NCBI GenBank assembly: GCA_964488545.1 | Contig: CAZAUL010000001.1 | Location: 54,955-118,954, forward strand | Direction: 5' to 3' | DNA from: an uncultured Gammaproteobacteria bacterium | Lineage (GTDB): Bacteria; Patescibacteriota; Microgenomatia; UBA1406; GWC2-37-13 | DNA length: 64,000 nucleotides | In this document: piece by piece, positions 2,468 through 16,986 of the stretch | Layout of the letters: each line of letters starts with the position of its first letter | Position numbering within the stretch: the stretch's first letter is position 1 | Notes under the pieces: generated by a model | Database searches by the model: none | Seen by the model: the letters and a program-made list of their open reading frames with translations, nothing else | What the model was told of the DNA's origin: nothing | Translations under genes and position numbers: made by a program

Positions 2468-4612
2468 ATGGATCCAAACATAACAACACCTCAACCAGAA
2501 CCTCTGCAAACTGCTCAACCAATTGTTGTTAAAAAGCACAGATCTATAGTGCCAGTACTTATTGCCTTTCTCTTTGTTGCGGGAGTTGTTGCCTATATTA
2601 TTAAAAGCCGGGCTCCATCAACAAACAGGTCGTTTCAGGGAAGTGGTAGTGCAGTACCATCGCTGGAACAGTCTTTTTTTGCGACAGATACTTTAGAAAA
2701 AATTAAGTCGGAGTCCGAGCTTATTGACCTATTGCAAAATGCAGATACACAAGGCGGAACGTTTACAAAAGACATAATGATGGAATCGCGTACAAGTGCG
2801 CTTCCAAATGTTGCCGGCAAACCAAGTAACGATACTGCAATGCGGGTTTCATCTACAAATGTTCAAACGTTTGGCGTCGATGAGCCTGATATTCTCAAAA
2901 CAGATGGTGGATCTATTTACTATTCGCGTGAAGGACAGTATCGATGCTTTGACACCCCAGCATCTGATTCTCTCCCTTCGTTTAAAGTTGCACCTGAGCG
3001 GTGTAATTCCACATCAGAAACCCTGGTGGTTGGTGCACTGCCCCCCTCAGAGATGAAGTTGAAAAGTACCATACCCCAAAGTGGTGAAATGCTTATTTCT
3101 GGTAAAAATCTCGTTGTTTTTACACAGAATGCCAAGGGATCATTTACCGTTGTTGGTTACTCCATAGCAAATGCAAGTACGCCAAAGAAACTATGGGAAA
3201 TTCCATTTCATACTCGTGTGCAAAAAGTTGGAGCACGACTATTTAAAGATAAGATATATCTCGTAACCGCGACCACAATTGCTTTACCAAAACCATGTCC
3301 GATACCGTTTACTGAAGGAGATCGGGGTTGGTCAATTGCGTGTTCTGATATTTATGTTCCTTCAAGCAGGCCTTCAAGTAACTCAGTATATTCTTTTGTG
3401 ATGATCAATCCAGAAACCGGCTCAGTTGATAACTCTATTTCAATGACGGGGAATAGTAATGTAAGCACACTCTATATGTCAAGAGAGGCCCTGTATTTGA
3501 GTTATATGGTCGAAGGAGATATTGTCAAAGTTCTGAGTCAGTTTGTTCAAGAAAAAAAAGGAGTATTACCTTCCTATATTGAAGATAAGATACGGACACT
3601 TGATTCGTACGATCTGTCACCACAAACAAAGGAAATGGAATTGCAAAGTGTGTTTTCTCAATATTTTTATTCTCTAGATGAAGATAAACGACTTACAGTT
3701 GAGAACAATCTCCAAAACGCATTTAAGACATTTTTTGCCAAATATAATAGATCATTTGAATATACTGGAATTGCAAAGTTTAGCGCTAACGACCTTTCAT
3801 TTGTCGCATCAGGCAAGGTTCCGGGACGTGCACTTAATCAGTTTTCATTTGATGAGTGGAAAGGGAATCTGCGGATCGCAACCACAATCGGAGATCAGAA
3901 TAGATTTTATTTTTCAGGATTCGGCGATATGCAGTCAGAGAGTGTGAGCGATGTATATGTGCTTGATGGCAAAATGAAAACAATAGGTTCGGTGAAAAAT
4001 CTAGGAAAAACAGAACGTATTTATTCAGTGCGATTTGTTGGTGATCGTGGCTATGTCGTAACATTTCGACAAACCGACCCATTTTATGTACTTGATTTAG
4101 CCAATCCGAATAGTCCACAACTTCGGGGAGAGCTTAAGATACCTGGCTTTTCATCATATCTTCACCCCCTCGATGAGCATCTGATACTTGGTGTTGGGAG
4201 AGAAAATCAAGTTAAACTATCATTATTCGATGTAAAAGATGCAAAAAATCCAAAAGAGATATCCAAGTACGAATTAGCGGGAGAGTATTGGAGTGAGGCC
4301 ATGGATAATCATCATGCATTTCTTCAGGATCAAAAATTCAGTATCTTCTTTTTACCTGGCGGGCGGGGTGGATATGTTTTTTCCTATGACGGAAGGGAAC
4401 TTAGCTTAGTAAAGTCGCTTGAAAGTGCACAGGTAAGACGAGGTATGTACTTGAATGATTATCTTTATATTATTTCAGATTCGGGAATAGCCACATATAG
4501 AGAGGGCACATGGGAAAAGGTGGGCGAGTTTTTCTACTCTGGCAAACCAATTCTGAATATTGCCGAACCGCGCGAAACAATGATTGATGAGCCAATAGAT
4601 GTAATGGAGTAG
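2468..4612 (+). CDS. Membrane-anchored/secreted beta-propeller domain protein (archaeal/CPR 'beta propeller domain' family)
   Basis: 714 aa with an N-terminal TM helix. VQTFGVDEPDILKTDGGSIYY and FRQTDPFYVLDLANPNSPQLRGELKIPGFSSYLHP match the family as I remember it. Confidence 0.6.
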   Translation: MDPNITTPQPEPLQTAQPIVVKKHRSIVPVLIAFLFVAGVVAYIIKSRAPSTNRSFQGSGSAVPSLEQSFFATDTLEKIKSESELIDLLQNADTQGGTFTKDIMMESRTSALPNVAGKPSNDTAMRVSSTNVQTFGVDEPDILKTDGGSIYYSREGQYRCFDTPASDSLPSFKVAPERCNSTSETLVVGALPPSEMKLKSTIPQSGEMLISGKNLVVFTQNAKGSFTVVGYSIANASTPKKLWEIPFHTRVQKVGARLFKDKIYLVTATTIALPKPCPIPFTEGDRGWSIACSDIYVPSSRPSSNSVYSFVMINPETGSVDNSISMTGNSNVSTLYMSREALYLSYMVEGDIVKVLSQFVQEKKGVLPSYIEDKIRTLDSYDLSPQTKEMELQSVFSQYFYSLDEDKRLTVENNLQNAFKTFFAKYNRSFEYTGIAKFSANDLSFVASGKVPGRALNQFSFDEWKGNLRIATTIGDQNRFYFSGFGDMQSESVSDVYVLDGKMKTIGSVKNLGKTERIYSVRFVGDRGYVVTFRQTDPFYVLDLANPNSPQLRGELKIPGFSSYLHPLDEHLILGVGRENQVKLSLFDVKDAKNPKEISKYELAGEYWSEAMDNHHAFLQDQKFSIFFLPGGRGGYVFSYDGRELSLVKSLESAQVRRGMYLNDYLYIISDSGIATYREGTWEKVGEFFYSGKPILNIAEPRETMIDEPIDVME

Positions 4613-4614
4613 TC

Positions 4615-5826
4615 TCACCAATCCTTTTTGTAATAGCGCCGACCTTTCAGGTTATTGGGAAGGTAATCTTGCCGAGGTTTTTTGCCAGTTTCTCGCTCAG
4701 ACATCCACGGATATCTCACGTGGCCTTTACCATAACCAAACTGCCTCATTACCTTATTAGAAGCATTGCGAAGATGGAGAGGTATGGGGTCAAGATTTTT
4801 TTCATCGATATCCGCCATAGCACTTGCAAGACCCTCAGTTGATGCAATTGACTTTTTTGCTGTGGCAAGATATGTAGCTGTTTGGGCCAGAATAAGAGAT
4901 GCTTCGGGCATACCTATCATATGTACCGCCTGCATGCACGAAGTAGCCACAACTAGTGCAGTAGGCTGTGCATTGCCGATATCTTCACTAGCAAAAATTA
5001 ACATACGTCGAGCAATAAAGAGAGGATCTTCACCTGCCTTGATCATGCGGGCAAGATAATGCAATGTGGCGTCAGGTTCTCCTCCTCGCATGCTTTTGAT
5101 AAATGCCGAAATGGTATCATAGTGCCAGTCGCCCTTCTTGTCGTATAGAATTGCTTTTCGCTGTATTGCTTCTTCTGCTATTTGAAGTGTAATTGTTCGT
5201 CCAAGTGATGATGCAAGTTCAACGGCATTAATTGCAGTGCGTGCATCTCCATTACTACTTTTTATTATATGCATCAGTGCATCATTATTCCATGTTCGAC
5301 CTTTAAACTGTGATACGGCAAGCGATACAATTTTCTCCATTTCAGCATCAGTAAGAGGATAAAGTACATAAACCTGAGACCGTGAAATAAGAGGTGCATT
5401 TACTTCAAATCCAGGATTTTCTGTAGTTGCTCCAATAAGAATTATCGATCCATCTTCTACATGAGGGAGAAAGGCATCCTGTTGTCCTTTATTAAATCGG
5501 TGGATTTCGTCCACAAAAAGGACAGTTTGTTTTTTAAATAGATTTTGTTCATTTTTTGCCCTTTTGATGATTTCTCGTATTTCTGCAACTCCACCAGTAA
5601 CTGCAGAAAATGAAACAAACTCTGCATCAACATATTGTGCAATAAGACGTGCAAGTGTAGTTTTACCACAGCCTGGAGGTCCCCATAAAATCATGGATGT
5701 AATCTTTCCACTTTCCAATAACTTTCGCAGAGGTTTTCCTTTACCTACAAGGTGCGTCTGTCCAACAACTTCATTTAGCGACTTAGGGCGTAGCTGTTCG
5801 GCGAGCGGTATATAATCCATTTCCAT
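4615..5826 (-). CDS. rarA: Replication-associated recombination protein A (AAA+ ATPase RarA/MgsA)
   Basis: Walker A GPPGCGKTTLARLIA, Walker B LFVDEIHRFNK, and a MgsA C-terminal domain. ATG at 5826 (the track start at 5829 is TTG). Confidence 0.9.
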   Translation of the reverse strand: MEMDYIPLAEQLRPKSLNEVVGQTHLVGKGKPLRKLLESGKITSMILWGPPGCGKTTLARLIAQYVDAEFVSFSAVTGGVAEIREIIKRAKNEQNLFKKQTVLFVDEIHRFNKGQQDAFLPHVEDGSIILIGATTENPGFEVNAPLISRSQVYVLYPLTDAEMEKIVSLAVSQFKGRTWNNDALMHIIKSSNGDARTAINAVELASSLGRTITLQIAEEAIQRKAILYDKKGDWHYDTISAFIKSMRGGEPDATLHYLARMIKAGEDPLFIARRMLIFASEDIGNAQPTALVVATSCMQAVHMIGMPEASLILAQTATYLATAKKSIASTEGLASAMADIDEKNLDPIPLHLRNASNKVMRQFGYGKGHVRYPWMSERETGKKPRQDYLPNNLKGRRYYKKDW

Positions 5827-5873
5827 CAATTATAAATAAAAGGAAAGTAAAAGTATACAATCGTTCACCCAGA

Positions 5874-7802
5874 TTATTTCTTTTTGAAAAAGGATATTAC
5901 GATTAATATCGACATGAAGGGAGAAAGAAGGAATACGATTTTCTGTGCTTCGGGATTTGTTAAGACGGACAATAACTTACTCTTCACAAGTCCAAGTAGC
6001 ACTTGTGGATGGGTAATTGTGTGTTTTTTATTAAGTTGATGTACCGATTTAAGAAGAGAACCTTTTGTATGGAGAAGAACACGAGAATGGTGATTAATTA
6101 TATTCATACGCACAACATAAACTTTATTTTTAGACTGTTGGATGGTGGGAAATCCAAATGGAAACGATTCACTTTTCCCGATTTCTGCTGTGTTTGTTAT
6201 TTGAGTTGCGTACCAATCTTTCTCATTTTTTTCTTTAATCATTATTTGAAGCATTTGTTTGTCATGGGGGTTTGGTAGAGTACACACAATAGTACCTGTG
6301 TGCTCTATCTTGAGTGTAATAATGCCTAAATTGTTATCAGGTGAGGTAAATTCAAATTCAACTGGTTCATCAGTTAGCTCTACATAGGGTGAGGACTGAT
6401 TGACATACTTTATTTGTTCGTGTGTATGATTATAGACGCGAGAAAAAAAATTGTATCCCGTCATGTACTTTGTGAAAACAATGCCAATAATTGAAATTGA
6501 AAGAATAATGACAGAAATACGGAAATGTAAATCTGAAACATATCCTTCGTTTGTATGTTTTGGTTTAAACTGAAAATAAAGTTTTTCGACAATGTGATGA
6601 AATAAATGTGAGACAGAGAGGGCTAAAGTGCCAGCTAACCCAATAAAAATAACATTGGAAATACTGTTTATCGGTTTCAGATGAAGGTGCAGTCCATCAA
6701 TAATTGCAGTATGGATGATGTAGAGTGGATAACTAACACTACCCAAATAGAGTAGAATTTTTTTATTAAAATTATCATGAAGTACTGGTGTGCGGATAGT
6801 CAGGTATACAATTGCTCCAAACGGAAAAGCCAATAATAAACTAATAAAAACATTTAAAGTTGCTTTTGAGGCAAACAACAGTTCGTGTCCTATAAATACA
6901 GTTAATGCAGCACAAACTGGCAGTAGTATGGAGATGATCTTTGGTAGTTGAAGTGGCTTATGAATGCTTGGAGAGTATGCAATAACAATACCGATACAGA
7001 AATAAAAAAAATAACCTATATATAGCATTGAAAGTCCACGGAAACCTACAAAAAGTAAGTGAAGTCCCCAAAAGAAGGGGATTAAAAACAGAATTAAAAC
7101 CTGGCGATAAACACTATGGAAACGTTCCATCGCTCGTGCTGTTGGAGCGATAAGATAAGGGTACAAAATATAAAATAGCACTTCACCATTGAGGCTCCAA
7201 TATACACCATCTAGAAGGGGAATATAATCGCCAGCAGGAAGTGTGAGCGTCATGTTCACAAGCGCAATGCTCATTTCCCTTATCCATTGAGGCATCGCCG
7301 CAAACCAAATGGGGGGGTGACGCATGATAATAAATCCATACCAAACCAGCACTAGAGTTTGCAGAAACATGAATGCAGTAATCAGCTTCGGTCCTATTTT
7401 ATACTTTTCTACAATTTGCATCCATAAAAAGCGCATGAGACCAGCCAATGCCAATATCACGACAATGCGTGCAATAAGCGGAGTGTCAGGATAAAGACGA
7501 AAAAATGTCATACTAATCGCCATAACAATAAAGGGTGGGAAAATACGCGCATACCTTTTTTGTATAAAGTCATGAGGTTGAGGATTTTTGTACAGATACG
7601 CCATCAAAAAACCCGAAAGAATATAGAAAAAGGTGACAGCAATTGTACCGCTAGAAAAAAGAAAAGCGATAAATGGGCGAAGTAGTATGGGAAATGCATT
7701 TATAATGTATCCAGAGTCCATGTGGTTTAAAACCACAAAAACTATTGCGAGACCACGTAAACCATCAAGCGCAGTAAGACGCAACTTCGTAAGACCACTC
7801 AT
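5874..7802 (-). CDS. Acyltransferase-3 (OafA/YrhL-like) integral membrane protein with an extra C-terminal domain
   Basis: LDGLRGLAIVFVVLNH start motif and about 10 TM helices, followed by a ~200-aa non-SGNH domain and a terminal TM helix. The start overlaps the trpS stop by 4 nt. Confidence 0.8.
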   Translation of the reverse strand: MSGLTKLRLTALDGLRGLAIVFVVLNHMDSGYIINAFPILLRPFIAFLFSSGTIAVTFFYILSGFLMAYLYKNPQPHDFIQKRYARIFPPFIVMAISMTFFRLYPDTPLIARIVVILALAGLMRFLWMQIVEKYKIGPKLITAFMFLQTLVLVWYGFIIMRHPPIWFAAMPQWIREMSIALVNMTLTLPAGDYIPLLDGVYWSLNGEVLFYILYPYLIAPTARAMERFHSVYRQVLILFLIPFFWGLHLLFVGFRGLSMLYIGYFFYFCIGIVIAYSPSIHKPLQLPKIISILLPVCAALTVFIGHELLFASKATLNVFISLLLAFPFGAIVYLTIRTPVLHDNFNKKILLYLGSVSYPLYIIHTAIIDGLHLHLKPINSISNVIFIGLAGTLALSVSHLFHHIVEKLYFQFKPKHTNEGYVSDLHFRISVIILSISIIGIVFTKYMTGYNFFSRVYNHTHEQIKYVNQSSPYVELTDEPVEFEFTSPDNNLGIITLKIEHTGTIVCTLPNPHDKQMLQIMIKEKNEKDWYATQITNTAEIGKSESFPFGFPTIQQSKNKVYVVRMNIINHHSRVLLHTKGSLLKSVHQLNKKHTITHPQVLLGLVKSKLLSVLTNPEAQKIVFLLSPFMSILIVISFFKKK

Positions 7803-9271
7803 CCCAATCCCAATTTTGTTTTAACTTCATACAACGTTTTTTGGGCGATGGATTTTGCTTTTTTTGCACCTTCCTGAATAACTGTGTCAACATATTTATT
7901 GTCTTTTTCTAAGACTGCTCTTTTATCCTGAAGAGGCTTTAGTTCGTTTGATATTGCATTTGCAACGGCATCTTTAATCTCAACAAATTTCAAAGTTCCA
8001 CTGGTAAACTGGTTTTCAAATTGCTCAATGGTATCTGGTATAAAAAGCCGAGCAAGTGTAAATAATGCCTTTACTCCCTCGTTCATTTCTCCCCCAGCAG
8101 AAGTTGCAGTTGGAATGGACCTAATCTTTTTCTTCACTTCGTCAGTGGAGTCAGTAAGATTTATATAACTTCCTTCAACTGATTTACTCATTTTTCCTTC
8201 TCCTTTAAGCGAAGGAATATACTCTCCTTTGGTTGCAAACCGAGTGGGCTCGGGGAAATCTAAACCGTATTGTTCATTCATTTTTCGAGCAATTTCACGC
8301 GTTACTTCAAGGTGAGGTTCTTGATCTATGCCGACCGGCACAAGTCCTGCCTTGTACACTAAAATATCTGCTGCCATCAATACTGGATAGTTCAATAGAG
8401 CCATGGTGCTGTGCTGAGGATACTGCTTTACTTTATCTTTAAAAGTTGGGAGGTGTTGCATACGGGCAATCGACATGACAGAAGAAAAATAAAACGCAAG
8501 CTCAAAGTGTTCGTTTACCTCAGCCTGTTGAAAGATAATGCTTTTATTCGGATCAAGTCCAGCGGCAAGGTAATCGATAATTACTTCACGTCTATTTTTC
8601 CGAAGTTCATTAATTGAGTAGGGAGTGGTAACGGTATGAGAGTCAGCCACCATAAATAAAGTTTCATATTCTTGGCTATTTTGAAGTTCCAACATACCTT
8701 TAACCGCTCCAAGATAGTTCCCCAAATGGAGACGTCCCGTTGCGCGAATTCCAGACAATACCCGTTTTGGACCTTTATATTTTGACTCAATAACAGATAG
8801 AGTAGAAATATCAGCCACCATAGAGTTGGGGAGTTTAGTTAAATCTTTTGTCTGATATTGAATACTACTTTCAAAACTCCCAGAACCAGCTTGTACAAAA
8901 GTCCTCTCCATCACTTTTTTATCAATAAACGTTCGCATTACTTCAGGAATAAATACTCGAGCGGCTCCGGGAGGTAATCCGGTAAGACTGCTAAATTCTT
9001 CATTCGTTGCCATTCTGAGAAGCTTCGTCTTTAGAATGTTTTGTAATTTTTTCAAATCAACTTTACAATCATCTCTTCGTATAACTGAGATATATCCATC
9101 ATCAACCTTAAAGATAAGTGTCGACGCACCATCTGCGAAAGTAAGTTTACAATACTTCAAAACGTCCTCAACGGTCACCAAATGAGGATGCTCCACTATT
9201 GAGTGGTTGAGACCCAATTCCTTGAGTTGATTTGAGTAGTTTTGTACAAGTGGTTCGATCATAGGTTTCAT
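7799..9271 (-). CDS. trpS: Tryptophan--tRNA ligase with an N-terminal ~165-aa YbaK/ProX-like domain
   Basis: The C-terminal ~325 aa carry GRLHLGNYLGAV (TrpRS HIGH-equivalent) and KMSKS. The N-terminus has a YbaK-like pattern (TLIFKVDDGYISVIRRDDCKVDLKKLQNIL...LRMATNEEFSSLTG). Confidence 0.9.
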   Translation of the reverse strand: MKPMIEPLVQNYSNQLKELGLNHSIVEHPHLVTVEDVLKYCKLTFADGASTLIFKVDDGYISVIRRDDCKVDLKKLQNILKTKLLRMATNEEFSSLTGLPPGAARVFIPEVMRTFIDKKVMERTFVQAGSGSFESSIQYQTKDLTKLPNSMVADISTLSVIESKYKGPKRVLSGIRATGRLHLGNYLGAVKGMLELQNSQEYETLFMVADSHTVTTPYSINELRKNRREVIIDYLAAGLDPNKSIIFQQAEVNEHFELAFYFSSVMSIARMQHLPTFKDKVKQYPQHSTMALLNYPVLMAADILVYKAGLVPVGIDQEPHLEVTREIARKMNEQYGLDFPEPTRFATKGEYIPSLKGEGKMSKSVEGSYINLTDSTDEVKKKIRSIPTATSAGGEMNEGVKALFTLARLFIPDTIEQFENQFTSGTLKFVEIKDAVANAISNELKPLQDKRAVLEKDNKYVDTVIQEGAKKAKSIAQKTLYEVKTKLGLG

Positions 9272-9280
9272 TATAGCAAG

Positions 9281-10405
9281 TTATATTATCTGGTCTATCT
9301 TTGCTGTAATTCGTAACGGCTCTTGATCCATAATTATTTCTGCATTTTTTTCATATTCCTGCTTTTGTTGAGGTTGATAATTAAGATTTACTTCTGCAAC
9401 TACAGCTTGATGTGATTGATTTTTCTGGAGATTAAGGGCGGCTAGCATAAGTGCGGGACATGTTCCTCCAAGACGGGCTGTAATATCCGTGATACCTTCA
9501 AGAGGATTTCCATTTTGATCTACGCCAATAAGCATATCATAGCTTAAACGGGATGCTAGTATTGGAGTTGTGGATCTATAGAGTAAATCAAAGGCTGCAG
9601 TTTTTTCGACTGTAGTAGCGTGGAGACCAACAGGCGAAAATTGGCGTGATACAATATCATGCAATTCATCAAAACCACCACGTACCACATGTACATTTTG
9701 AGCACCTAAATAGATATCTCGCCCATCTGGACCTCTTCCGTTTTTTTGGTCAGCAACGAAACTATACTTGTCTCTCCCGAGAAAAAATGTACCAACAGAA
9801 ATAGTTTTCTTTGGACCAGTAACATTCTGCTCAATCACAAGTCCATCTTTACTGATAGAACTCTCGCTATGGTGTGTTAACAAATATGCCAAATGTTCTT
9901 TGTTTTCAAGAGCCGCCTGACCCTCACCGTCAGAATCGTTCGTTGTTTTAAGTCGATAAGAAAAAGGCTTATGATGACGCAGATTATCGTCATAATAGTT
10001 AATGGCATCCTTCGCACTAAAAATCGTGACGCCCGGTAATACTAATCCTATTTCTTGCGCTTTTAATGCCATCAGATATATTTGTTCATCATAAAAACTT
10101 GGATATATATCTCCAATCGCGGGATGAAGCACAGCTTTACCTACATATGACATCTCTGGCGTCATACCACCATAAAAATCTTCAACTGTTGTGATTAAAA
10201 ATTTTCCACGGTCATGTCCACTTAAAGTTATGCCTGGAACTATGTAGGTTTTATTATGAGGGAATTTCATGAGCGGTTCAGGGTTGTAAGAAAATCCTTG
10301 ATAACGAGCAATCTTTTCCGCAATTGTTCCATTTCTTTCTTTTACGAAGGTAAATCTGGTTGAAAGTGGATCCATGTTTCCAAGATACGTGCGCACTTCT
10401 GTCAT
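9281..10405 (-). CDS. Conserved hypothetical protein, possible ATP-grasp fold
   Basis: 374 aa, tightly packed between trpB and trpS. RLKTTNDSDGEGQ, LVIEQNV and ITDITARLGG loosely resemble ATP-grasp P-loop, hinge and Mg-site motifs. The functional call is weak. Confidence 0.5.
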   Translation of the reverse strand: MTEVRTYLGNMDPLSTRFTFVKERNGTIAEKIARYQGFSYNPEPLMKFPHNKTYIVPGITLSGHDRGKFLITTVEDFYGGMTPEMSYVGKAVLHPAIGDIYPSFYDEQIYLMALKAQEIGLVLPGVTIFSAKDAINYYDDNLRHHKPFSYRLKTTNDSDGEGQAALENKEHLAYLLTHHSESSISKDGLVIEQNVTGPKKTISVGTFFLGRDKYSFVADQKNGRGPDGRDIYLGAQNVHVVRGGFDELHDIVSRQFSPVGLHATTVEKTAAFDLLYRSTTPILASRLSYDMLIGVDQNGNPLEGITDITARLGGTCPALMLAALNLQKNQSHQAVVAEVNLNYQPQQKQEYEKNAEIIMDQEPLRITAKIDQII

Positions 10406-10406
10406 A

Positions 10407-11597
10407 TTATTTCTTTTCTAAAAATGTTTTATATACATACTCTACGTCTTTATCTCCTCGGCCGGAGAGATTAACTACAACCACTTCGTTTTTATGTAGT
10501 TGTTTTGCAAGTTTTATTCCATGTGCAACAGCGTGTGCTGATTCAAGAGCGGGGATTATCCCTTCAGTACGGGACAAAAGAGAAAACGCATCAACTGCCT
10601 CTGCATCTGATGCTGTTGCGAGAAACACTCTCCCTGTTTCAGCAAGATACGCAATTTCAGGTCCAACTCCCGGGTAATCGAGCCCCGATGCAGCGCTATA
10701 TGATGTTGCTATTGATCCATCTGGATGTACTAAGACGCGCGTTTTATAACCATGAATTGTTGATGGTTTACCTTTGCCTAGAGCCAAACCATGCATATCC
10801 GTGTCTATCCCTTTCCCTGCAGGTTCGACTGCAACAAGATGTACATTCGGATCATCAATAAACGAGTAAAACGCGCCAAGTGCATTACTTCCGCCTCCAA
10901 CGCAAGCTACTATGGAATGGGGGAGTTGACCTTCTACAAGCATTATTTGAGATTTGATTTCTTCACCGATTATTTTTTGGAAATCACGAACCATTGTTGG
11001 ATACGGATGTGGTCCTACAGTAGAACCCAAAAGATAAAAAGATTCAGGCTCTTTAATATACGCGCTTAATGCCATATCCACTGCATCTTTGAGTGTCTTT
11101 TGACCTGTGGTGACTGGGATAACACGTGCACCTAATATTTTCATACGGAACACATTTGGCCTTTCATTTTTTATGTCACGTTCACCCATGTATATGTCAC
11201 AACCCATTCCAAAATAAGCGGCTACTGTTGCTGTTGCAACTCCATGTTGGCCGGCTCCCGTTTCGGCAATAAGTTTTTTCTTACCCATACGCATTGCAAT
11301 AAGTGCTTGACCTAATGCATTGTTTATTTTGTGAGCGCCAGTATGATTGAGATCTTCACGCTTGAGATACATCTTTGCTCCCTGTGCGTAGCGAGTGAGG
11401 TTTTTTGCAAAAAATAGGCGACTAGGTCTTCCTGCAAAGTCTCTATACAACCTTTTTAAATCGTTTTGAAACGATATGTCTTTGATTGCATCGTAATAAG
11501 CAATTGTTAGTTTGTGAAGGGACTTTTCAAGTTGGGGCGGAACATAAGAACCACCAAAAGGACCAAAAAATCCGTTTTTATCTGGCTGTTTATACAT
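10407..11597 (-). CDS. trpB: Tryptophan synthase beta chain (TrpB1-type); no trpA adjacent
   Basis: FGPFGGSYVPPQL, LKREDLNHTGAHKINN (PLP lysine), GAGQHGVATA and GGGSNALG. Confidence 0.95.
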   Translation of the reverse strand: MYKQPDKNGFFGPFGGSYVPPQLEKSLHKLTIAYYDAIKDISFQNDLKRLYRDFAGRPSRLFFAKNLTRYAQGAKMYLKREDLNHTGAHKINNALGQALIAMRMGKKKLIAETGAGQHGVATATVAAYFGMGCDIYMGERDIKNERPNVFRMKILGARVIPVTTGQKTLKDAVDMALSAYIKEPESFYLLGSTVGPHPYPTMVRDFQKIIGEEIKSQIMLVEGQLPHSIVACVGGGSNALGAFYSFIDDPNVHLVAVEPAGKGIDTDMHGLALGKGKPSTIHGYKTRVLVHPDGSIATSYSAASGLDYPGVGPEIAYLAETGRVFLATASDAEAVDAFSLLSRTEGIIPALESAHAVAHGIKLAKQLHKNEVVVVNLSGRGDKDVEYVYKTFLEKK

Positions 11598-11655
11598 ATA
11601 AAAAAGTTAAAAAATAATAAATGAAAATTGGTTATATGAAGAAATTAAAGTAGGC

Positions 11656-11928
11656 TTATCGCCACGAAGAAGATGGGGTTACCGATTTAAATCGGCCTTG
11701 TGCAATTTCCTTTGAACCGCGAGTTACTGTTGCTATACCCACACCAAGTTTTTCAGCGATGGAGTGTTGAGGAATACCTTTTTTAAGCATTTTTACGATT
11801 TGAAGGCGGATTGGTATCTCATCGAGTTCCTTCGGTGTAAGTATGCCCTTTAGAAATTCCTCTATCTCTGTATGTGTTTTGCACAATGAAAGTTCAGCAA
11901 CGAACTCACCAATAAATTTCCTATTCAT
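11656..11928 (-). CDS. trpR: Trp repressor (TrpR) homologue
   Basis: LTPKELDEIPIRLQIVKMLKKGIPQHSIAEKLGVGIATVTRGSKE aligns with E. coli TrpR [46 protein letters not shown]. Confidence 0.85.
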   Translation of the reverse strand: MNRKFIGEFVAELSLCKTHTEIEEFLKGILTPKELDEIPIRLQIVKMLKKGIPQHSIAEKLGVGIATVTRGSKEIAQGRFKSVTPSSSWR

Positions 11929-11930
11929 GC

Positions 11931-11964
11931 GTACTAGTATACTAGTACACTATTATTTTGTCAA
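11931..11964 (-). promoter_or_regulatory. Sigma70-type promoter (TTGACA-17-TATACT) with an embedded 18-bp trp-operator-like palindrome GTACTAGTATACTAGTAC
   Basis: The minus strand reads TTGACA AAATAATAGTGTACTAG TATACT AGTACGC ATG. The palindrome at 11931..11948 is perfect and matches the idealised E. coli trp operator at 16 of 18 positions. Confidence 0.7.
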
Positions 11965-12565
11965 CAAGATTTTGCTTGTAAGAAATACACTTAAATGCGT
12001 ATTTGTTTTCGATAGTTTCACATGGTTGACCTTGTATCATATTGGATGGGGCATCGTTCTTAATATAGTATAAAAGAAATGAGACGGGATATTTGTTCAT
12101 GAGTGTTTTTAAATTCGGATTATCTTTAAGGTTTCCAAGTTCATATTTAAAATTATCCATTTTTTTGATTTCATTACCTGTTAATGATCCGACAACTATA
12201 TTTCTTTGTATCAAATCCGGAGTTTGGTAATAGGTTGCAATCCCGATTTTTGAATCATCTTTTGCCAAGTCTTTTACTGTTTCAAAAAGTGTCGCATCAT
12301 TTCCACGCATCTCAAAAGTTAGCTTATTATCTAATTGCACTGGATAGAGACACATCGAATGTACTTCCGCATAGCACATAGGAGATCGAAGATTTATTTT
12401 ATTTGCTGGTAAACCAGCGGGTTCGGCCGCTTTGCTGTTTGTCGCTTGATTGCTTTGTAGTGTCCAGAAATTAAATAGCAACATACCGGCAATTAGGATA
12501 ATCCCCAATCCTATATATGTGGTTTTTTTTGAAATACAAACTCTTGATTGTTCCATAAAATCCAT
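11942..12565 (-). CDS. Hypothetical membrane-anchored/secreted protein
   Basis: 207 aa with an N-terminal hydrophobic helix (TYIGLGIILIAGMLLFNFW). No recognisable domain. Its stop codon lies inside the trp operator. Confidence 0.55.
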   Translation of the reverse strand: MDFMEQSRVCISKKTTYIGLGIILIAGMLLFNFWTLQSNQATNSKAAEPAGLPANKINLRSPMCYAEVHSMCLYPVQLDNKLTFEMRGNDATLFETVKDLAKDDSKIGIATYYQTPDLIQRNIVVGSLTGNEIKKMDNFKYELGNLKDNPNLKTLMNKYPVSFLLYYIKNDAPSNMIQGQPCETIENKYAFKCISYKQNLVDKIIVY

Positions 12566-12597
12566 TGTTGCATAAGTAAGAGATCAAGTCAAGCTAT

Positions 12598-13365
12598 ATG
12601 TTATTATGTGACTATATGACTCAAAAAAAAGTAACTCGGTTTGATCTTGAAAAGCATCTTGCAGAGGAACATAAAATGTCTGGATTTTCGACGTACCTAA
12701 GAGAAATAGTGTATGGAGGTAACGACGGAATAATTACAACATTTGCAGTCGTTGCAGGGTTTGCAGGTGCTCATGCGCAAGGGAATGGAACAATTCCATT
12801 ACTTGCAGTGTTACTTTTTGGTTTCGCAAATTTATTTGCCGATGGCGCATCAATGGCGCTTGGTAATTTTTTATCTACTCGTTCAGAACAAGATGTATAT
12901 GCGGGTATAAAAGCAAAGGAAATGCATGAAATTGATCATAATCCAGAGATTGAAAAAGAAGAGTCGATAGAAATTCTCATTCGTCGCGGTTTTACTGTAA
13001 AACAAGCTGAGCAGCTGGTTGCAATTTATATGACAAATAAATCTTACTGGACAAGTTTCATGATGAACGAAGAACTTGAACTTCCCAATCCAGAAGGAGA
13101 AAAGCCCGCCCATATGGCGCTCGCAACTTTTTTCTCTTTTGTCATTTTTGGATGCATTCCACTTCTTCCATACCTGTTTTTTATGGGTCATCCATCACTG
13201 TTTACCATGTCAGTCGTTTCAACGGGAGTCGCTATGTTATTGCTTGGCATACTTCGCTGGAGGGTCACAATGCAAAGTGTGTGGAGAAGTATCGGCGAAA
13301 ATCTTGCTCTTGGGATTGCGGCCGCATCAATAGCCTATTTGGTTGGGACAATGTTTAGAGTCTAA
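12598..13365 (+). CDS. VIT1/CCC1-family iron/manganese transporter
   Basis: YGGNDGIITTFAVVAGFAG motif and C-terminal TM helices. An alternative start lies at 12616. Confidence 0.85.
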   Translation: MLLCDYMTQKKVTRFDLEKHLAEEHKMSGFSTYLREIVYGGNDGIITTFAVVAGFAGAHAQGNGTIPLLAVLLFGFANLFADGASMALGNFLSTRSEQDVYAGIKAKEMHEIDHNPEIEKEESIEILIRRGFTVKQAEQLVAIYMTNKSYWTSFMMNEELELPNPEGEKPAHMALATFFSFVIFGCIPLLPYLFFMGHPSLFTMSVVSTGVAMLLLGILRWRVTMQSVWRSIGENLALGIAAASIAYLVGTMFRV

Positions 13366-15571
13366 CAATAGTATACGGATCCTTGTCGTGATTACAGTCT
13401 ACACAGTAAATTGAAAACATATCTTTGATTATTGTTTTTTCCCTGTGTTCAACATTGGTGTCAGTTGGACTGGCAAGTTTATCCGTATCTTTATTGATAG
13501 GTACCGACTGGCGTACTGACCCGCCACCTTGAGGCTCGGTACCCTTGATGAAAAATTCATAACGAGCAGGGCAACTCTCAGCACCTCCATCATCTTTTGT
13601 CATTGCGGTACCGCTGTCATTGCAAATTTGTTTTCCAATCACTGTATCAGGTTTTACCGGCCACACATCGGGCTGTTCGGCGAGAACGTATCGCATTATC
13701 TTATTCCATATTGGTGCTGCGCCGGTAACCCCTGAGGCAAGCGCAGGGTTCATGGGTGAGTTGTCATTATTTCCAACCCATACAGCGGTGAGAAAGTTTG
13801 GCGTGTAGCCAATGGTCCAGTTGTCTTTTTTATCATCAGTTGTTCCTGTTTTGACTGACACAGTCTTGCGAGGGACGATAAGGAATGAGCTGTCACCGAA
13901 TGCTGAAACTCGTGCGTTGTTGTCGAGCAAAATATGCGAAATAATGTATGATGCTTCACGAGACAGTACACGTTTACCAGGGATTGCAAGTGCTGACGGT
14001 GCAGAAATGGGCTTAGCAATATCCTTAACGAGATTGGCATCTTGAAATTCGTAAAGAACTTTGCCCGTTCTGTCCTCGATTTTCAAAATAGAGTTGAGTT
14101 TTCGTGGAATACCCTGGTTGGCGAGTGCCGAAAAGGCCTGTGCCATCTCGGTCATTCGAACTTCACCACCGCCAAGAGTCAGTGACAAGCCGTATCGTTT
14201 TGGATCGTCAAATGATGTAATCGTTAATGCAGATGCAGATGCAATAAATTCTTTTACACCGTTTACTGCAAGCATTTTTACTGCGGGAATGTTATACGAA
14301 TTTCCCAGAGCGAACCGAAGTTGCGTTGGTCCATGAAACTGACCATCATAGTTAACTGGACAGTATGATCCTGGCTGGCCTTCTGCTGTAAAACAGGTTG
14401 GAATATCTAAAAAAACAGTGCCAGCAGTAACTTTTTTTAAATCTATACCGACGGCAAAGTTAAGTGGTTTAATTGAACTTCCGGGCTGTCGGAGAGCGGT
14501 GGTAACATTAAACGCGCCTGAGCCAGTAGCAAAGTAGTCGACTGACCCAACCATTGCAATCACCTCTCCTGTGGGTGGTCTCGTAACAAGTGCCGCACCG
14601 TTGTTTACATTGAGGTACTCTATATCCTCAAGCTCCTCGCGGACAATTTTTTCCGCCTCTTCTTGCACTGTGAGATCAAGCGTGGTGGTAACTTTCAAAC
14701 CACCTTGTTCAACCAGGTCTGCCCCAAATTGCTTTTCTAAAAGTTGCTTTACATAAAATACAAAATGCGGCGCTTTTACTATCGTTCGGAGTGGAATAAC
14801 AGCGATGGGTTTTTTAAGAAGTTCATCCTTTTGTTTTGAAGAGATATATGACTGCTCAGCCATTGCTTTCAGTACCTCATTGCGGCGCTTTACAGCAAGA
14901 TCAGGATTGATATATGGCGAATAGAGTGATGGTGCCTGGGGTAGTCCTGCTAAAAATGCGGCTTCATCTATAGTTAACTCTTTTGCATGTTTTCCAAAGA
15001 ACGTTTTTGATGCTTCCTCAATACCATATGCTGAGCCACCGTATGGCACTTGATTGAGATACATTTCAAGGATTTCTTCTTTTGTAAACTGCTGTTCCAC
15101 TTGAACTGCCAATATGATTTCACGTACTTTTCTCCGAATTGTTCGTTCAGGACTCAATAGTGCGTTTTTAACAAGTTGCTGAGTAAGGGTTGATCCTCCT
15201 TGTAAATTTTGGCGGAGTAGTGTGTCCTTCATTGCTCGCAGAATGCCCGATACTAATGAAACACCTTTATGTTTGTAAAAATCTTTGTCTTCAATTGCTA
15301 TTACTGCCTGATATACGTGCGGTTTTAAATCTTTAAGGTATATTTGAGTTCTGTTTTGATCACGGTATATCTCATAGAGCAGCTTGCCGTTTCGATCATA
15401 CATGTGTGTTGAAAGCGGGACTGTTTTATTATCACGTAGGGAAGATGCGGCTGGCAGGTCTTTAAAAATAAAAAAGTAAATGACAGCAGAAATGAGAACT
15501 ACTGATAAAATTAAACCTCCAATGCTTAATGCCAACAGGTGATCTTTGATAAAGGCAACTACTTTATTCAT
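13355..15571 (-). CDS. Class A penicillin-binding protein (transglycosylase/transpeptidase, PBP1A)
   Basis: GT51 motifs AIEDKDFYKHKGV and GGSTLTQQL, and the transpeptidase motif SSIKP. Confidence 0.9.
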   Translation of the reverse strand: MNKVVAFIKDHLLALSIGGLILSVVLISAVIYFFIFKDLPAASSLRDNKTVPLSTHMYDRNGKLLYEIYRDQNRTQIYLKDLKPHVYQAVIAIEDKDFYKHKGVSLVSGILRAMKDTLLRQNLQGGSTLTQQLVKNALLSPERTIRRKVREIILAVQVEQQFTKEEILEMYLNQVPYGGSAYGIEEASKTFFGKHAKELTIDEAAFLAGLPQAPSLYSPYINPDLAVKRRNEVLKAMAEQSYISSKQKDELLKKPIAVIPLRTIVKAPHFVFYVKQLLEKQFGADLVEQGGLKVTTTLDLTVQEEAEKIVREELEDIEYLNVNNGAALVTRPPTGEVIAMVGSVDYFATGSGAFNVTTALRQPGSSIKPLNFAVGIDLKKVTAGTVFLDIPTCFTAEGQPGSYCPVNYDGQFHGPTQLRFALGNSYNIPAVKMLAVNGVKEFIASASALTITSFDDPKRYGLSLTLGGGEVRMTEMAQAFSALANQGIPRKLNSILKIEDRTGKVLYEFQDANLVKDIAKPISAPSALAIPGKRVLSREASYIISHILLDNNARVSAFGDSSFLIVPRKTVSVKTGTTDDKKDNWTIGYTPNFLTAVWVGNNDNSPMNPALASGVTGAAPIWNKIMRYVLAEQPDVWPVKPDTVIGKQICNDSGTAMTKDDGGAESCPARYEFFIKGTEPQGGGSVRQSVPINKDTDKLASPTDTNVEHREKTIIKDMFSIYCVDCNHDKDPYTIVRL

Positions 15572-16986
15572 ATACTAATTCGTGGAAATAGCGGTGGAAT
15601 TTTCTGAATGGTGCCCGAGGTATACTGCATGATCTTTTCGCTAATGGTTGGCATAAACGGCGAAAGACGAATGCCAACTGCATGTAGTATATGTATTGCA
15701 TTTGTGAGAAATGTATGGCGTTCTTCAGGAGTTTTGCTCCATGGTTCGAATGTATTAATTTCCTTATTAAGATCTTTAATTGTGCTCCAGATAGAGCCTA
15801 ATACTTGACCAAAGGCAAACGATTCTATTTGTCGAAGATCTTCTATGGGTGATTGCGATGTAGTTTGTGTAACTGAAATTCCATCTTTAGCGGCAAGGGT
15901 AGTAATACGAGACACACAGTTCCCCAGTTCATTTGCGAGGTCTGCATTGTACACCTCTTTCATACGGGACTCAGAATAGTCGCCATCATCAAGACTCGGG
16001 ATTTCACGAAGCAAATAGTAGCGTACTGCATCTGTGCCATATGTATTTACAATCATATAAGGATTTACCACATTACCAAGGCTTTTACTCATTTTTTGAC
16101 CATTTGAGGTAATGAATCCGTGTATGATGATTTGATCGGAAAGGGGTAGTTTTGCCGACATGAGCATTGCTTGCCACATTGCCGACTGCTGTCTGAGGTT
16201 GTCTTTACCGGCCACCTGTTTTCCGGGCCAATAGGCGGCAAACTGTTCACTCTGTGTTGGCCAGCCCAAGGTTGAGATATAGTTTATAAGCGCATCAAAC
16301 CACACATACATTACGTGGTCTGAGTCTTCTGGGACAGGTATTCCCCAGGGCATCTTCTTTTTCAACCGAGATACACTAAAGTCCTGAAGCCCCCCCTCAA
16401 CAAAGTGAATAATTTCCCGCATTTTTTCGGTCGGGACTACAAAATGAGGGTTTTTCCTGTATAGTTCAAGAAGTGGCTTTTGATACTTTGAGAATTTAAA
16501 AAAGTAGTTTTCTTCGTTGCGAAGTTCAATAGCAGTTTTAGGATGGATGGGGCACTTGTCATCCTCAAGTTCGGAGTCTGTTTTTTCTAGTTCACACCCA
16601 ACACAATATTTTGTTTGATAGTTTTTTTTGTATATGTCGTCGTTGTTTTTGCACCGAGTCCAAAACTCTTGTGCGGCACTTATGTGTGCCTTGTCAGTTG
16701 TGCGGATAAAGTGCGTATAGCTTAGATTGAGCGCATCGCGTAGTTTGCTGAACTTTTCTGCATACTCATCACAGTAAGCTTTTGGATCTTTATTTTGTTC
16801 AACTGCTTTTTCATAAATTTTTTGTCCATGTTCATCAGTTCCCGTATTAAATACTACGGTTGCTCCGTGCATGCGCCAAGCGCGTGCAAGGACATCCGCT
16901 TGGACTATTTCAAGGGCAAATCCAATATGCGGTTCCGCATTCACATAAGGGAGAGTGGTGGTGATATATTTTTTGGTTTGAGACAT
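15568..16986 (-). CDS. metG: Methionine--tRNA ligase (short form, no C-terminal tRNA-binding domain)
   Basis: PYVNAEPHIGFALE (HIGH-like), a CVGCE...CPIHP zinc knuckle, and KMSKSLGN. Confidence 0.95.
   Translation of the reverse strand: MSQTKKYITTTLPYVNAEPHIGFALEIVQADVLARAWRMHGATVVFNTGTDEHGQKIYEKAVEQNKDPKAYCDEYAEKFSKLRDALNLSYTHFIRTTDKAHISAAQEFWTRCKNNDDIYKKNYQTKYCVGCELEKTDSELEDDKCPIHPKTAIELRNEENYFFKFSKYQKPLLELYRKNPHFVVPTEKMREIIHFVEGGLQDFSVSRLKKKMPWGIPVPEDSDHVMYVWFDALINYISTLGWPTQSEQFAAYWPGKQVAGKDNLRQQSAMWQAMLMSAKLPLSDQIIIHGFITSNGQKMSKSLGNVVNPYMIVNTYGTDAVRYYLLREIPSLDDGDYSESRMKEVYNADLANELGNCVSRITTLAAKDGISVTQTTSQSPIEDLRQIESFAFGQVLGSIWSTIKDLNKEINTFEPWSKTPEERHTFLTNAIHILHAVGIRLSPFMPTISEKIMQYTSGTIQKIPPLFPRISI

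Follow-up and report, generated by a model that had tools for sequence, protein, structure and literature searches.

A putative trp operator of the Escherichia coli type embedded in the promoter of a trpR-headed gene cluster from Patescibacteria

Introduction

The TrpR repressor of E. coli binds its trp operator in tandem (structure 1TRR), and T-box systems raise the expression of TrpRS when tryptophan or charged tRNA-Trp is scarce. TrpR is conserved in Gammaproteobacteria and missing from the other proteobacterial classes, and the promoter of E. coli trpR overlaps a TrpR operator, which leads to negative feedback (PMC5343134). TrpR also occurs in Chlamydia (PMC7755916, PMC6504234), and in C. 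trachomatis it acts at a promoter upstream of trpR (PMC7755916). The effector of the TrpR family can switch, as in HisR, which senses histidine (PMC9413887).

A literature search for TrpR in Patescibacteria returned no paper, and one for indole or tryptophan synthase in the candidate phyla radiation was likewise negative. The control of transcription is very poorly understood in these bacteria, almost none of which have been cultured. Here, we describe a promoter with an overlapping palindrome that lies directly upstream of a TrpR-like gene in the window (the whole 64-kb stretch of DNA that was analysed). The closest homologues of this gene carry names such as Patescibacteria group bacterium and Candidatus Roizmanbacteria. 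With a probability of about 0.8, the element would be the promoter–operator of a trpR-headed operon, in which tryptophan-bound TrpR represses trpR, trpB, a DUF3182 gene and trpS.

Structure of the promoter and operator

Read along the minus strand from 11964 to 11926, the region is TTGACA-AAATAATAGTGTACTAG-TATACT-AGTACGC-ATG, with a spacer of 17 nt (Table 1). An earlier note on this DNA had described this arrangement, and the sequence bears it out, coordinates included. Across the 8.3 kb covered by the promoter scan (4400–12700), this promoter is the top sigma-70-type match (11/12). Its -10 hexamer is covered by the perfect 18-bp palindrome to which the same note had drawn attention. The palindrome spans positions -20 to -3 relative to the predicted start and is centred at -11.5. 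It is the sole match to GTACTAGTATACTAGTAC in the window, even when up to three mismatches are allowed (chance expectation 0.01).

The palindrome departs from the idealised E. coli operator at the two central bases only, as had been claimed, so that 16 of 18 positions agree. These two bases fall on the 'nn' positions of the gammaproteobacterial TrpR motif TGTAcTnGTnnACnAgTACA, which the extended site TGTACTAGTATACTAGTACG matches at 19 of 20 positions (PMC9413887). The site has the features of an E. coli-type trp operator, being a CTAG dyad that fits TGTAcTnGTnnACnAgTACA and overlaps both the -10 hexamer and the spacer. The half-sites had been described as lying 8 bp apart, which is true centre to centre and corresponds to CTAG-N4-CTAG. 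This pattern occurs once in the window, at the operator itself; CTAG-N8-CTAG, taken literally, has no match in the window. The CTAG tetranucleotide is four-fold rarer in the window than base composition predicts (62 observed, 230 expected), and the counts of GTAC and GATC are near expectation.

The dyad described earlier stands, but it turns out to belong to a larger array. The spacer and the -10 hexamer are taken up by three (A/C)TAG-centred units in 8-bp phase. Two of them make up the perfect dyad, and the third is degenerate (ATAG on the minus strand, plus-strand positions 11950–11953). The additional phased units that tandem dimers would use are present in the sequence, both in the second register at 11939–11956 and in the three-unit consensus of the family (see below). 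On the family weight matrix the site at 11931 scores 27.5 bits, and the only other match in the window is the overlapping register at 11939.

The -35 hexamer and the spacer are carried by the last codons of the upstream 207-aa ORF. Its TAG stop does lie inside the operator, as had been reported. Weak homologues of the 207-aa protein precede trpR in three related loci (L024, L041 and L062). Since the upstream genes vary among relatives, the presence of the stop codon within the operator is incidental. Reading the palindrome as a terminator was rejected: the one terminator-like call here falls on the plus strand, on which no gene comes to an end at this point. Among related loci (L003–L082), a C directly precedes TTGACA in 47 of 60, and a C is found at -3 and -4 relative to this hexamer in 38 and 32 of 60, respectively; the window has CTTGTTGACA. 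These conserved C residues could be an extended -35 element or another contact.

Table 1. Features of the trpR promoter region and of the neighbouring genes in the window.
Feature	Position	Strand	Remarks
-35 hexamer TTGACA of the trpR promoter	11959..11964	-	inside the 3' end of the upstream ORF
Second operator register, minus strand ATAATAGTGTACTAGTAT	11939..11956	.	overlaps the first with an 8-bp offset; 20.4 bits
Core operator GTACTAGTATACTAGTAC, perfect 18-bp palindrome	11931..11948	.	CTAG at 11934-11937 and 11942-11945
-10 hexamer TATACT	11936..11941	-	centre of the operator palindrome
AGTACGC between -10 and ATG	11929-11935	-	7 nt
trpR start codon ATG	11926..11928	-	A at 11928 is the predicted transcription start
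Upstream 207-aa hypothetical protein	11942..12565	-	no Pfam match; TAG stop at 11942-11944 in the operator
trpR, 90-aa TrpR-family repressor	11656..11928	-	Pfam PF01371, 67.1 bits (cutoff 27)
trpB, tryptophan synthase beta	10407..11597	-	TIGR00263, 557 bits (cutoff 392); 58 nt after trpR
DUF3182 protein	9281..10405	-	PF11379, 2.3e-42; 1 nt after trpB
TrpRS with N-terminal YbaK-like editing domain, 490 aa	7799..9271	-	TIGR00233, 282 bits (cutoff 177)

Conservation of the element among Microgenomates

In a scan of one genome per species, the TrpR-like family was found in at least 585 species-level genomes. The best 80 of these relatives, which come from Roizman-, Levy-, Davies-, Woese- and Pacebacteria and other Microgenomates, served as the comparison set; their trpR homologues are 53–82% identical. 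A promoter of the form TTGAC[A/T]-N16-18-TAnnnT precedes the trpR homologue in 71 of the 80 loci. The spacer of this promoter is 17 nt long in 60 of the 71, and TATACT serves as the -10 hexamer in 31 loci, TATAAT in another 25. The distance from the -10 hexamer to an in-frame start codon is most commonly 7 nt (25/71) and falls between 6 and 11 nt in 54/71.

Alignment on the promoter yields the consensus ccnCTTGACAAtATACTAgcATACTAGTATAaTAGTAT, which consists of three TACTAGnn units in 8-bp phase; the operator consensus of the family, ATACTAgcATACTAGTATAaTAGTAT, also contains three phased units. Positions that do not belong to the promoter hexamers are informative too: the TACTAG of the spacer carries 1.3–1.9 bits and the AGTA that follows the -10 hexamer 0.9–1.2 bits, compared with less than 0.5 bit in the flanks of the aligned sites. 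A weight matrix built from these sites finds 135 matches at trpR promoters versus seven elsewhere in about 480 kb of loci, and these seven are at or below the rate in shuffled sequence. From this distribution, the element is a specific feature of trpR promoters and is maintained by selection. A search with the weight matrix found no further site in the remainder of the window and no more than background-level matches in the 80 loci. In one locus (L025), the operator is missing at the trpR promoter, and a tandem operator-like site, ATATTAGTGTACTAGTTTGCTAGTTT, is found about 1.5 kb upstream (1481–1506), before a divergent gene.

In metagenomes, scanned in an unbiased way for the exact 18-mer, a TrpR-family gene shared the locus in 25 of 120 matches. 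The remaining matches include simple repeats, longer palindromes and loci with GntR or MacB genes. These mixed contexts rule out the use of the 18-mer alone as a marker of TrpR sites. In high-GC contigs, the 18-mer occurs in L148 (4959–4976), L167 (2073–2090), L184 (1855–1872) and L186 (2848–2865). It is preceded by TTGACA in L184 and L186, and is followed by a GntR-family regulator in L148 and by a MacB-type ABC component in L167. Metagenome contigs with a GC content of about 48% carry perfect palindromes of 30–40 bp around the 18-mer, e.g. TATCAGCGTACTAGTATACTAGTACGCTGATA. They are found in L108 (8077), L142 (1032), L140 (668), L162 (7701) and L174 (1243), as well as in L126, L135, L192 and L152. 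No TrpR-family gene was detected in these long-palindrome loci, and their flanks are unrelated (HhH-GPD, LigD primase-polymerase).

The TrpR-family protein

The 90-aa ORF matches the Pfam Trp_repressor family above the gathering score, with an E-value of 1.4e-18. An AF2 model built on 94 homologues has a pLDDT of 93.1 and consists of five helices; helix F and the N-terminal arm are absent. The top fold matches in the PDB are all E. coli TrpR, including 1TRR and 1TRO (TM 0.72–0.77, rmsd 1.9–2.6 Å), and are followed by 3FRW, 3KOR and 3G1C, which are HisR-like. The monomer model contains the TrpR fold with its D–E helix-turn-helix. The protein does not reach the NCBIfam equivalog cutoff for TrpR (TIGR01321, 49.4 versus 67.25 bits) and is therefore best described as a member of a distinct TrpR-like subfamily rather than a gammaproteobacterial ortholog. 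Its score on the YerC/YecD model is lower than that on TrpR (29.6 bits, cutoff 42.2).

The recognition helix had been said to be that of TrpR, and the alignment agrees (GVGIATVTRGS here, GAGIATITRGS in E. coli). Alignments of 28 and 94 sequences show little or no variation in this helix (GxGxATVTRGSKE). In the HMMER alignment, Thr44, Pro45, Arg54, Ile57, Val58, Ile79, Ala80, Thr81, Thr83, Arg84, Gly85 and Ser86 of E. coli TrpR are all kept, and the columns of most of these residues are invariant or nearly so in the two larger sets of 28 and 94 sequences. The column of Val58 (position 45) is close to invariant, and those of Ile79 (position 65) and Ala80 (position 66) show conservative variation, or none in the smaller set only. 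Residue roles are those familiar from the structural literature on TrpR (1TRO, 1ZT9), and we take Thr44, Arg54, Thr81 and Arg84 to be the residues by which E. coli TrpR holds tryptophan. By alignment, the 90-aa protein has retained both the recognition helix and these residues of the tryptophan pocket. Three other E. coli residues are replaced: Arg69 by His55, Ser88 by Glu74 and Leu41 by Gly28. The outermost base of the operator, contacted by Arg69 in E. coli, is A/T rather than G/C in most relatives, and this difference may be linked to the change of Arg69 to His.

The note had also suggested a very distant lineage, which is now identified as Patescibacteria (Microgenomates). Sequence identity between the protein and TrpR of E. 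coli amounts to only 41% over 46 residues. In view of this identity and of the occurrence of the family in at least 585 species-level genomes, a recent horizontal transfer from Enterobacteria was rejected.

Downstream genes and the likely regulon

The earlier note tied the site to trpR itself. This assignment holds and can be extended to a tryptophan-related cluster that trpR heads. Behind trpR, on the same strand, come trpB, the DUF3182 gene and, after a gap of 9 nt, a gene for a fusion of a YbaK/ProX-like aminoacyl-tRNA editing domain (aa 28–147, PF04073, 9e-17) with TrpRS (aa 168–489). We know of no other case of an editing domain on TrpRS. The N-terminal part of the fusion is also found by tblastn in L003, L004, L012, L024 and L079. 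The DUF3182 gene occupies the same position, between trpB and trpS, in L041 and L062. No relative of its product was found in the PDB or NCBIfam, and the protein may be an uncharacterised enzyme of tryptophan metabolism.

The gap between trpR and trpB contains no minus-strand terminator and no strong promoter according to the scan, and trpB is probably co-transcribed with trpR. From trpR to trpS, no second operator, minus-strand terminator or strong internal promoter was found, and an Rfam scan of positions 4000–14000 (E <= 1) returned no T-box, attenuator or other RNA element. Co-transcription of trpR and trpB through to trpS is proposed because of spacing and strand only. trpA was not found in the window.

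The association with tryptophan genes is seen both in the window (trpB, trpS) and in the 80 related loci. Downstream of trpR on the same strand, trpS is present in 40–42 of these loci, trpB or a TrpB-like PLP enzyme in 24–25, trpE-trpG-trpD in 10 and trpA in three. Gene linkage of this kind is an argument that the signal is tryptophan and that trpR heads a regulated operon.

In other Microgenomates, the trpR-headed clusters contain further genes as well. An Asp/Glu-type racemase is found in 10 of the 80 (L015, L036, L037, L040, L042, L044, L061, L064, L076 and L078), and a DIT1_PvcA-like protein, which we take to belong to the isonitrile-synthase family, in L023, L059 and L065. A GNAT acetyltransferase is found in L003 and L009, a PPDK_N/PEP-utiliser in L045, L056 and L058, and an M20 peptidase in L048 and L052. 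There are also two families without a Pfam match, of 365–425 and 408–561 aa. These non-canonical cluster genes may encode tryptophan-modifying functions under TrpR control.

Transcription start and leader of the trpR mRNA

Only 7 nt separate the -10 hexamer from the ATG, which leaves no room for a Shine-Dalgarno sequence, and this distance is conserved. The start codon agrees with the MN(K/R) N-terminus that TrpR homologues share. In the E. coli trp promoter, the A that follows AGTACGC is the transcription start. The trpR mRNA is predicted to be leaderless, starting at the A of the ATG or within 1–2 nt of it. The earlier note had treated the short or absent leader as a feature of trpR. The leader may indeed be short or absent, but this looks common in the genome rather than special to trpR. 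Among the 50 genes in the window with ORFs of at least 150 aa, Shine-Dalgarno matches, mostly weak AGGA, precede five, and a TATAAT-like hexamer lies 4–10 nt before the start codon of 10 (e.g. 15568–16986, 32214, 39607, 42689 and 50556). From these counts, leaderless first genes seem common in this genome. Long-leader read-through transcripts of trpR are also possible, because the promoter lies inside the upstream gene and there is no terminator between the two.

Proposed mechanism and alternative explanations

Comparative evidence supports the functional reading given in the earlier note, and the locus is very probably a genuine switch under tryptophan control, familiar in type but found here in a new lineage; no new mechanism is revealed. 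We infer DNA binding, the role of tryptophan as co-repressor, tandem occupancy, the transcription start and co-transcription from sequence. When tryptophan is plentiful, TrpR dimers loaded with it would sit on the 18-bp dyad, and a second dimer would probably bind in tandem to the overlapping register 8 bp upstream. The two dimers would cover positions from about -28 to -3 and exclude RNA polymerase. As a result, trpR would repress itself (negative autoregulation), and trpB, the DUF3182 gene and the editing-domain/TrpRS fusion would be shut off. At low tryptophan, the apo-repressor would leave the operator and the operon would be transcribed. Derepression would then provide for more synthesis of tryptophan, presumably from indole and serine, and for the charging of tRNA-Trp.

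The signal need not be tryptophan, however. A TrpR-family repressor could bind the same operator and respond to indole, to another amino acid or to no ligand at all. The 90-aa protein scores below the TrpR equivalog cutoff and has Gly and Glu at the pocket positions of Leu41 and Ser88 in E. coli, and HisR is a precedent for an effector switch in this family (PMC9413887). Against these features, Thr44, Arg54, Thr81 and Arg84 are all kept, the TrpR model fits better than that of YerC/YecD (49.4 versus 29.6 bits), and the neighbouring genes are all related to tryptophan and not to his or other pathways, which makes a different or absent ligand unlikely.

Two further explanations take the palindrome away from TrpR altogether. 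It could act mainly as an RNA hairpin that terminates or stabilises the transcript of the 207-aa gene, given that it directly follows the stop codon of this gene, can form a hairpin of 9 bp and lies in a 71-nt region that folds at -13.7 kcal/mol (z = -1.9). But no U-tract follows it on the minus strand, no terminator is called there, and in relatives the motif precedes trpR in a fixed -35/-10 register whatever the upstream gene is; we regard a hairpin function as very improbable. Slimmer yet are the chances that a regulator of the GntR/YtrA type or a restriction-modification enzyme recognises the palindrome and that its adjacency to trpR is a coincidence. The same 18-mer does precede one gene of the GntR family and one of the MacB type in unrelated metagenome contigs of higher GC content, and the site contains the recognition sequences of SpeI (ACTAGT) and RsaI (GTAC). 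However, 71 of the 80 genomes have the motif at trpR, their loci contain it almost nowhere else, and there is no GntR gene near trpR in the window.

With control of the operon by tryptophan and TrpR as the preferred reading, repressor, operator, promoter and target genes can all be read from the sequence and are conserved across Microgenomates. Because the operator shares 16 of its 18 bases with the idealised site of E. coli, the prediction is directly testable in E. coli or in vitro. The locus would place the canonical logic of TrpR and its CTAG operator in a phylum beyond Gammaproteobacteria and Chlamydiae, would add trpS and a stand-alone trpB to its targets and points to tryptophan/indole salvage as a regulated function in reduced genomes. 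A broader and rather doubtful possibility is that the TrpR helix, the CTAG/8-bp operator and its embedding in the -35 and -10 elements constitute one ancient module, which persisted with little change in Patescibacteria and Gammaproteobacteria, drifted in Chlamydiae and heads a hitherto unrecognised tryptophan/indole-salvage regulon in Microgenomates. If so, this regulon would comprise stand-alone TrpB, TrpRS (sometimes as a YbaK-like fusion) and the uncharacterised DUF3182 proteins, racemases and PvcA/DIT1-like proteins, and these episymbiont-like bacteria would depend centrally, and in a regulated manner, on the acquisition of tryptophan from a host or neighbour.

Comparison with known systems

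The closest counterpart of the window promoter is that of trpEDCBA in E. coli K-12, TTGACA-ATTAATCATCGAACTAG-TTAACT-AGTACGC-A. The two promoters have in common the -35 hexamer, a 17-nt spacer that ends in ACTAG, the positions of both CTAG sequences, the dyad centre at -11.5, and the AGTACGC after the -10 hexamer with the A that follows it. In both, the -10 hexamer sits in the centre of the dyad, and the CTAG cores are 8 bp apart, with phased units that permit tandem dimers. The central bases are TATA in the window and TTAA in the E. coli operator. Unlike trpEDCBA, the putative operon in the window is headed by trpR, lacks both a leader peptide and an attenuator, should give a leaderless mRNA and would have trpS as a target. 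The proteins share the GIAT(I/V)TRGS helix and the fold (TM 0.72–0.77), but the window protein, with 90 aa and five helices, differs from E. coli TrpR in having neither helix F nor the N-terminal arm. Similar to E. coli trpR, the promoter of the repressor gene overlaps an operator. E. coli trpR is monocistronic and its operator is imperfect, whereas the window combines a perfect operator with a trpR that stands at the head of a multi-gene cluster.

The C. trachomatis trpRBA operon resembles the window in its gene order, with trpR first and trpB next on the same strand, and in its small TrpR (94 aa), reduced genome and host-dependent organism. It differs in the gap of about 350 bp between trpR and trpB, in the iron-dependent YtgR operator and in the presence of trpA; the gap in the window is 58 nt, trpA is absent, and DUF3182 and trpS are added. 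The window does not contain a Chlamydia-type trpRBA operon; the order trpR–trpB is common to the two. The region upstream of C. trachomatis trpR (L204) has no match to GTACTAGTNNACTAGTAC, even with three mismatches, and contains at 2469–2488 the dyad TGTAATATTATAGCATTACA (TGTAAT...ATTACA) and no CTAG-type operator. Its recognition helix is SIAQITRGS, and the window protein is 37% identical to C. trachomatis TrpR over 70 residues. Helix and operator vary together, because C. trachomatis differs from E. coli in both. By this comparison, the helix/operator pair of Patescibacteria is nearer to that of E. coli than the Chlamydia pair is, although the Patescibacteria protein is overall the most divergent of the three.

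The T-box control of trpS in Firmicutes is a functional analogue only, being exerted by an RNA riboswitch and not by a protein repressor as proposed for the window. HisR/YerC-YecD proteins have the same fold as the window protein and palindromic operators of about 20 bp that are often autoregulated, but differ in the operator sequence (cacTTTA-N6-TAAAgtg), the effector (histidine) and the targets (his genes) (PMC9413887).
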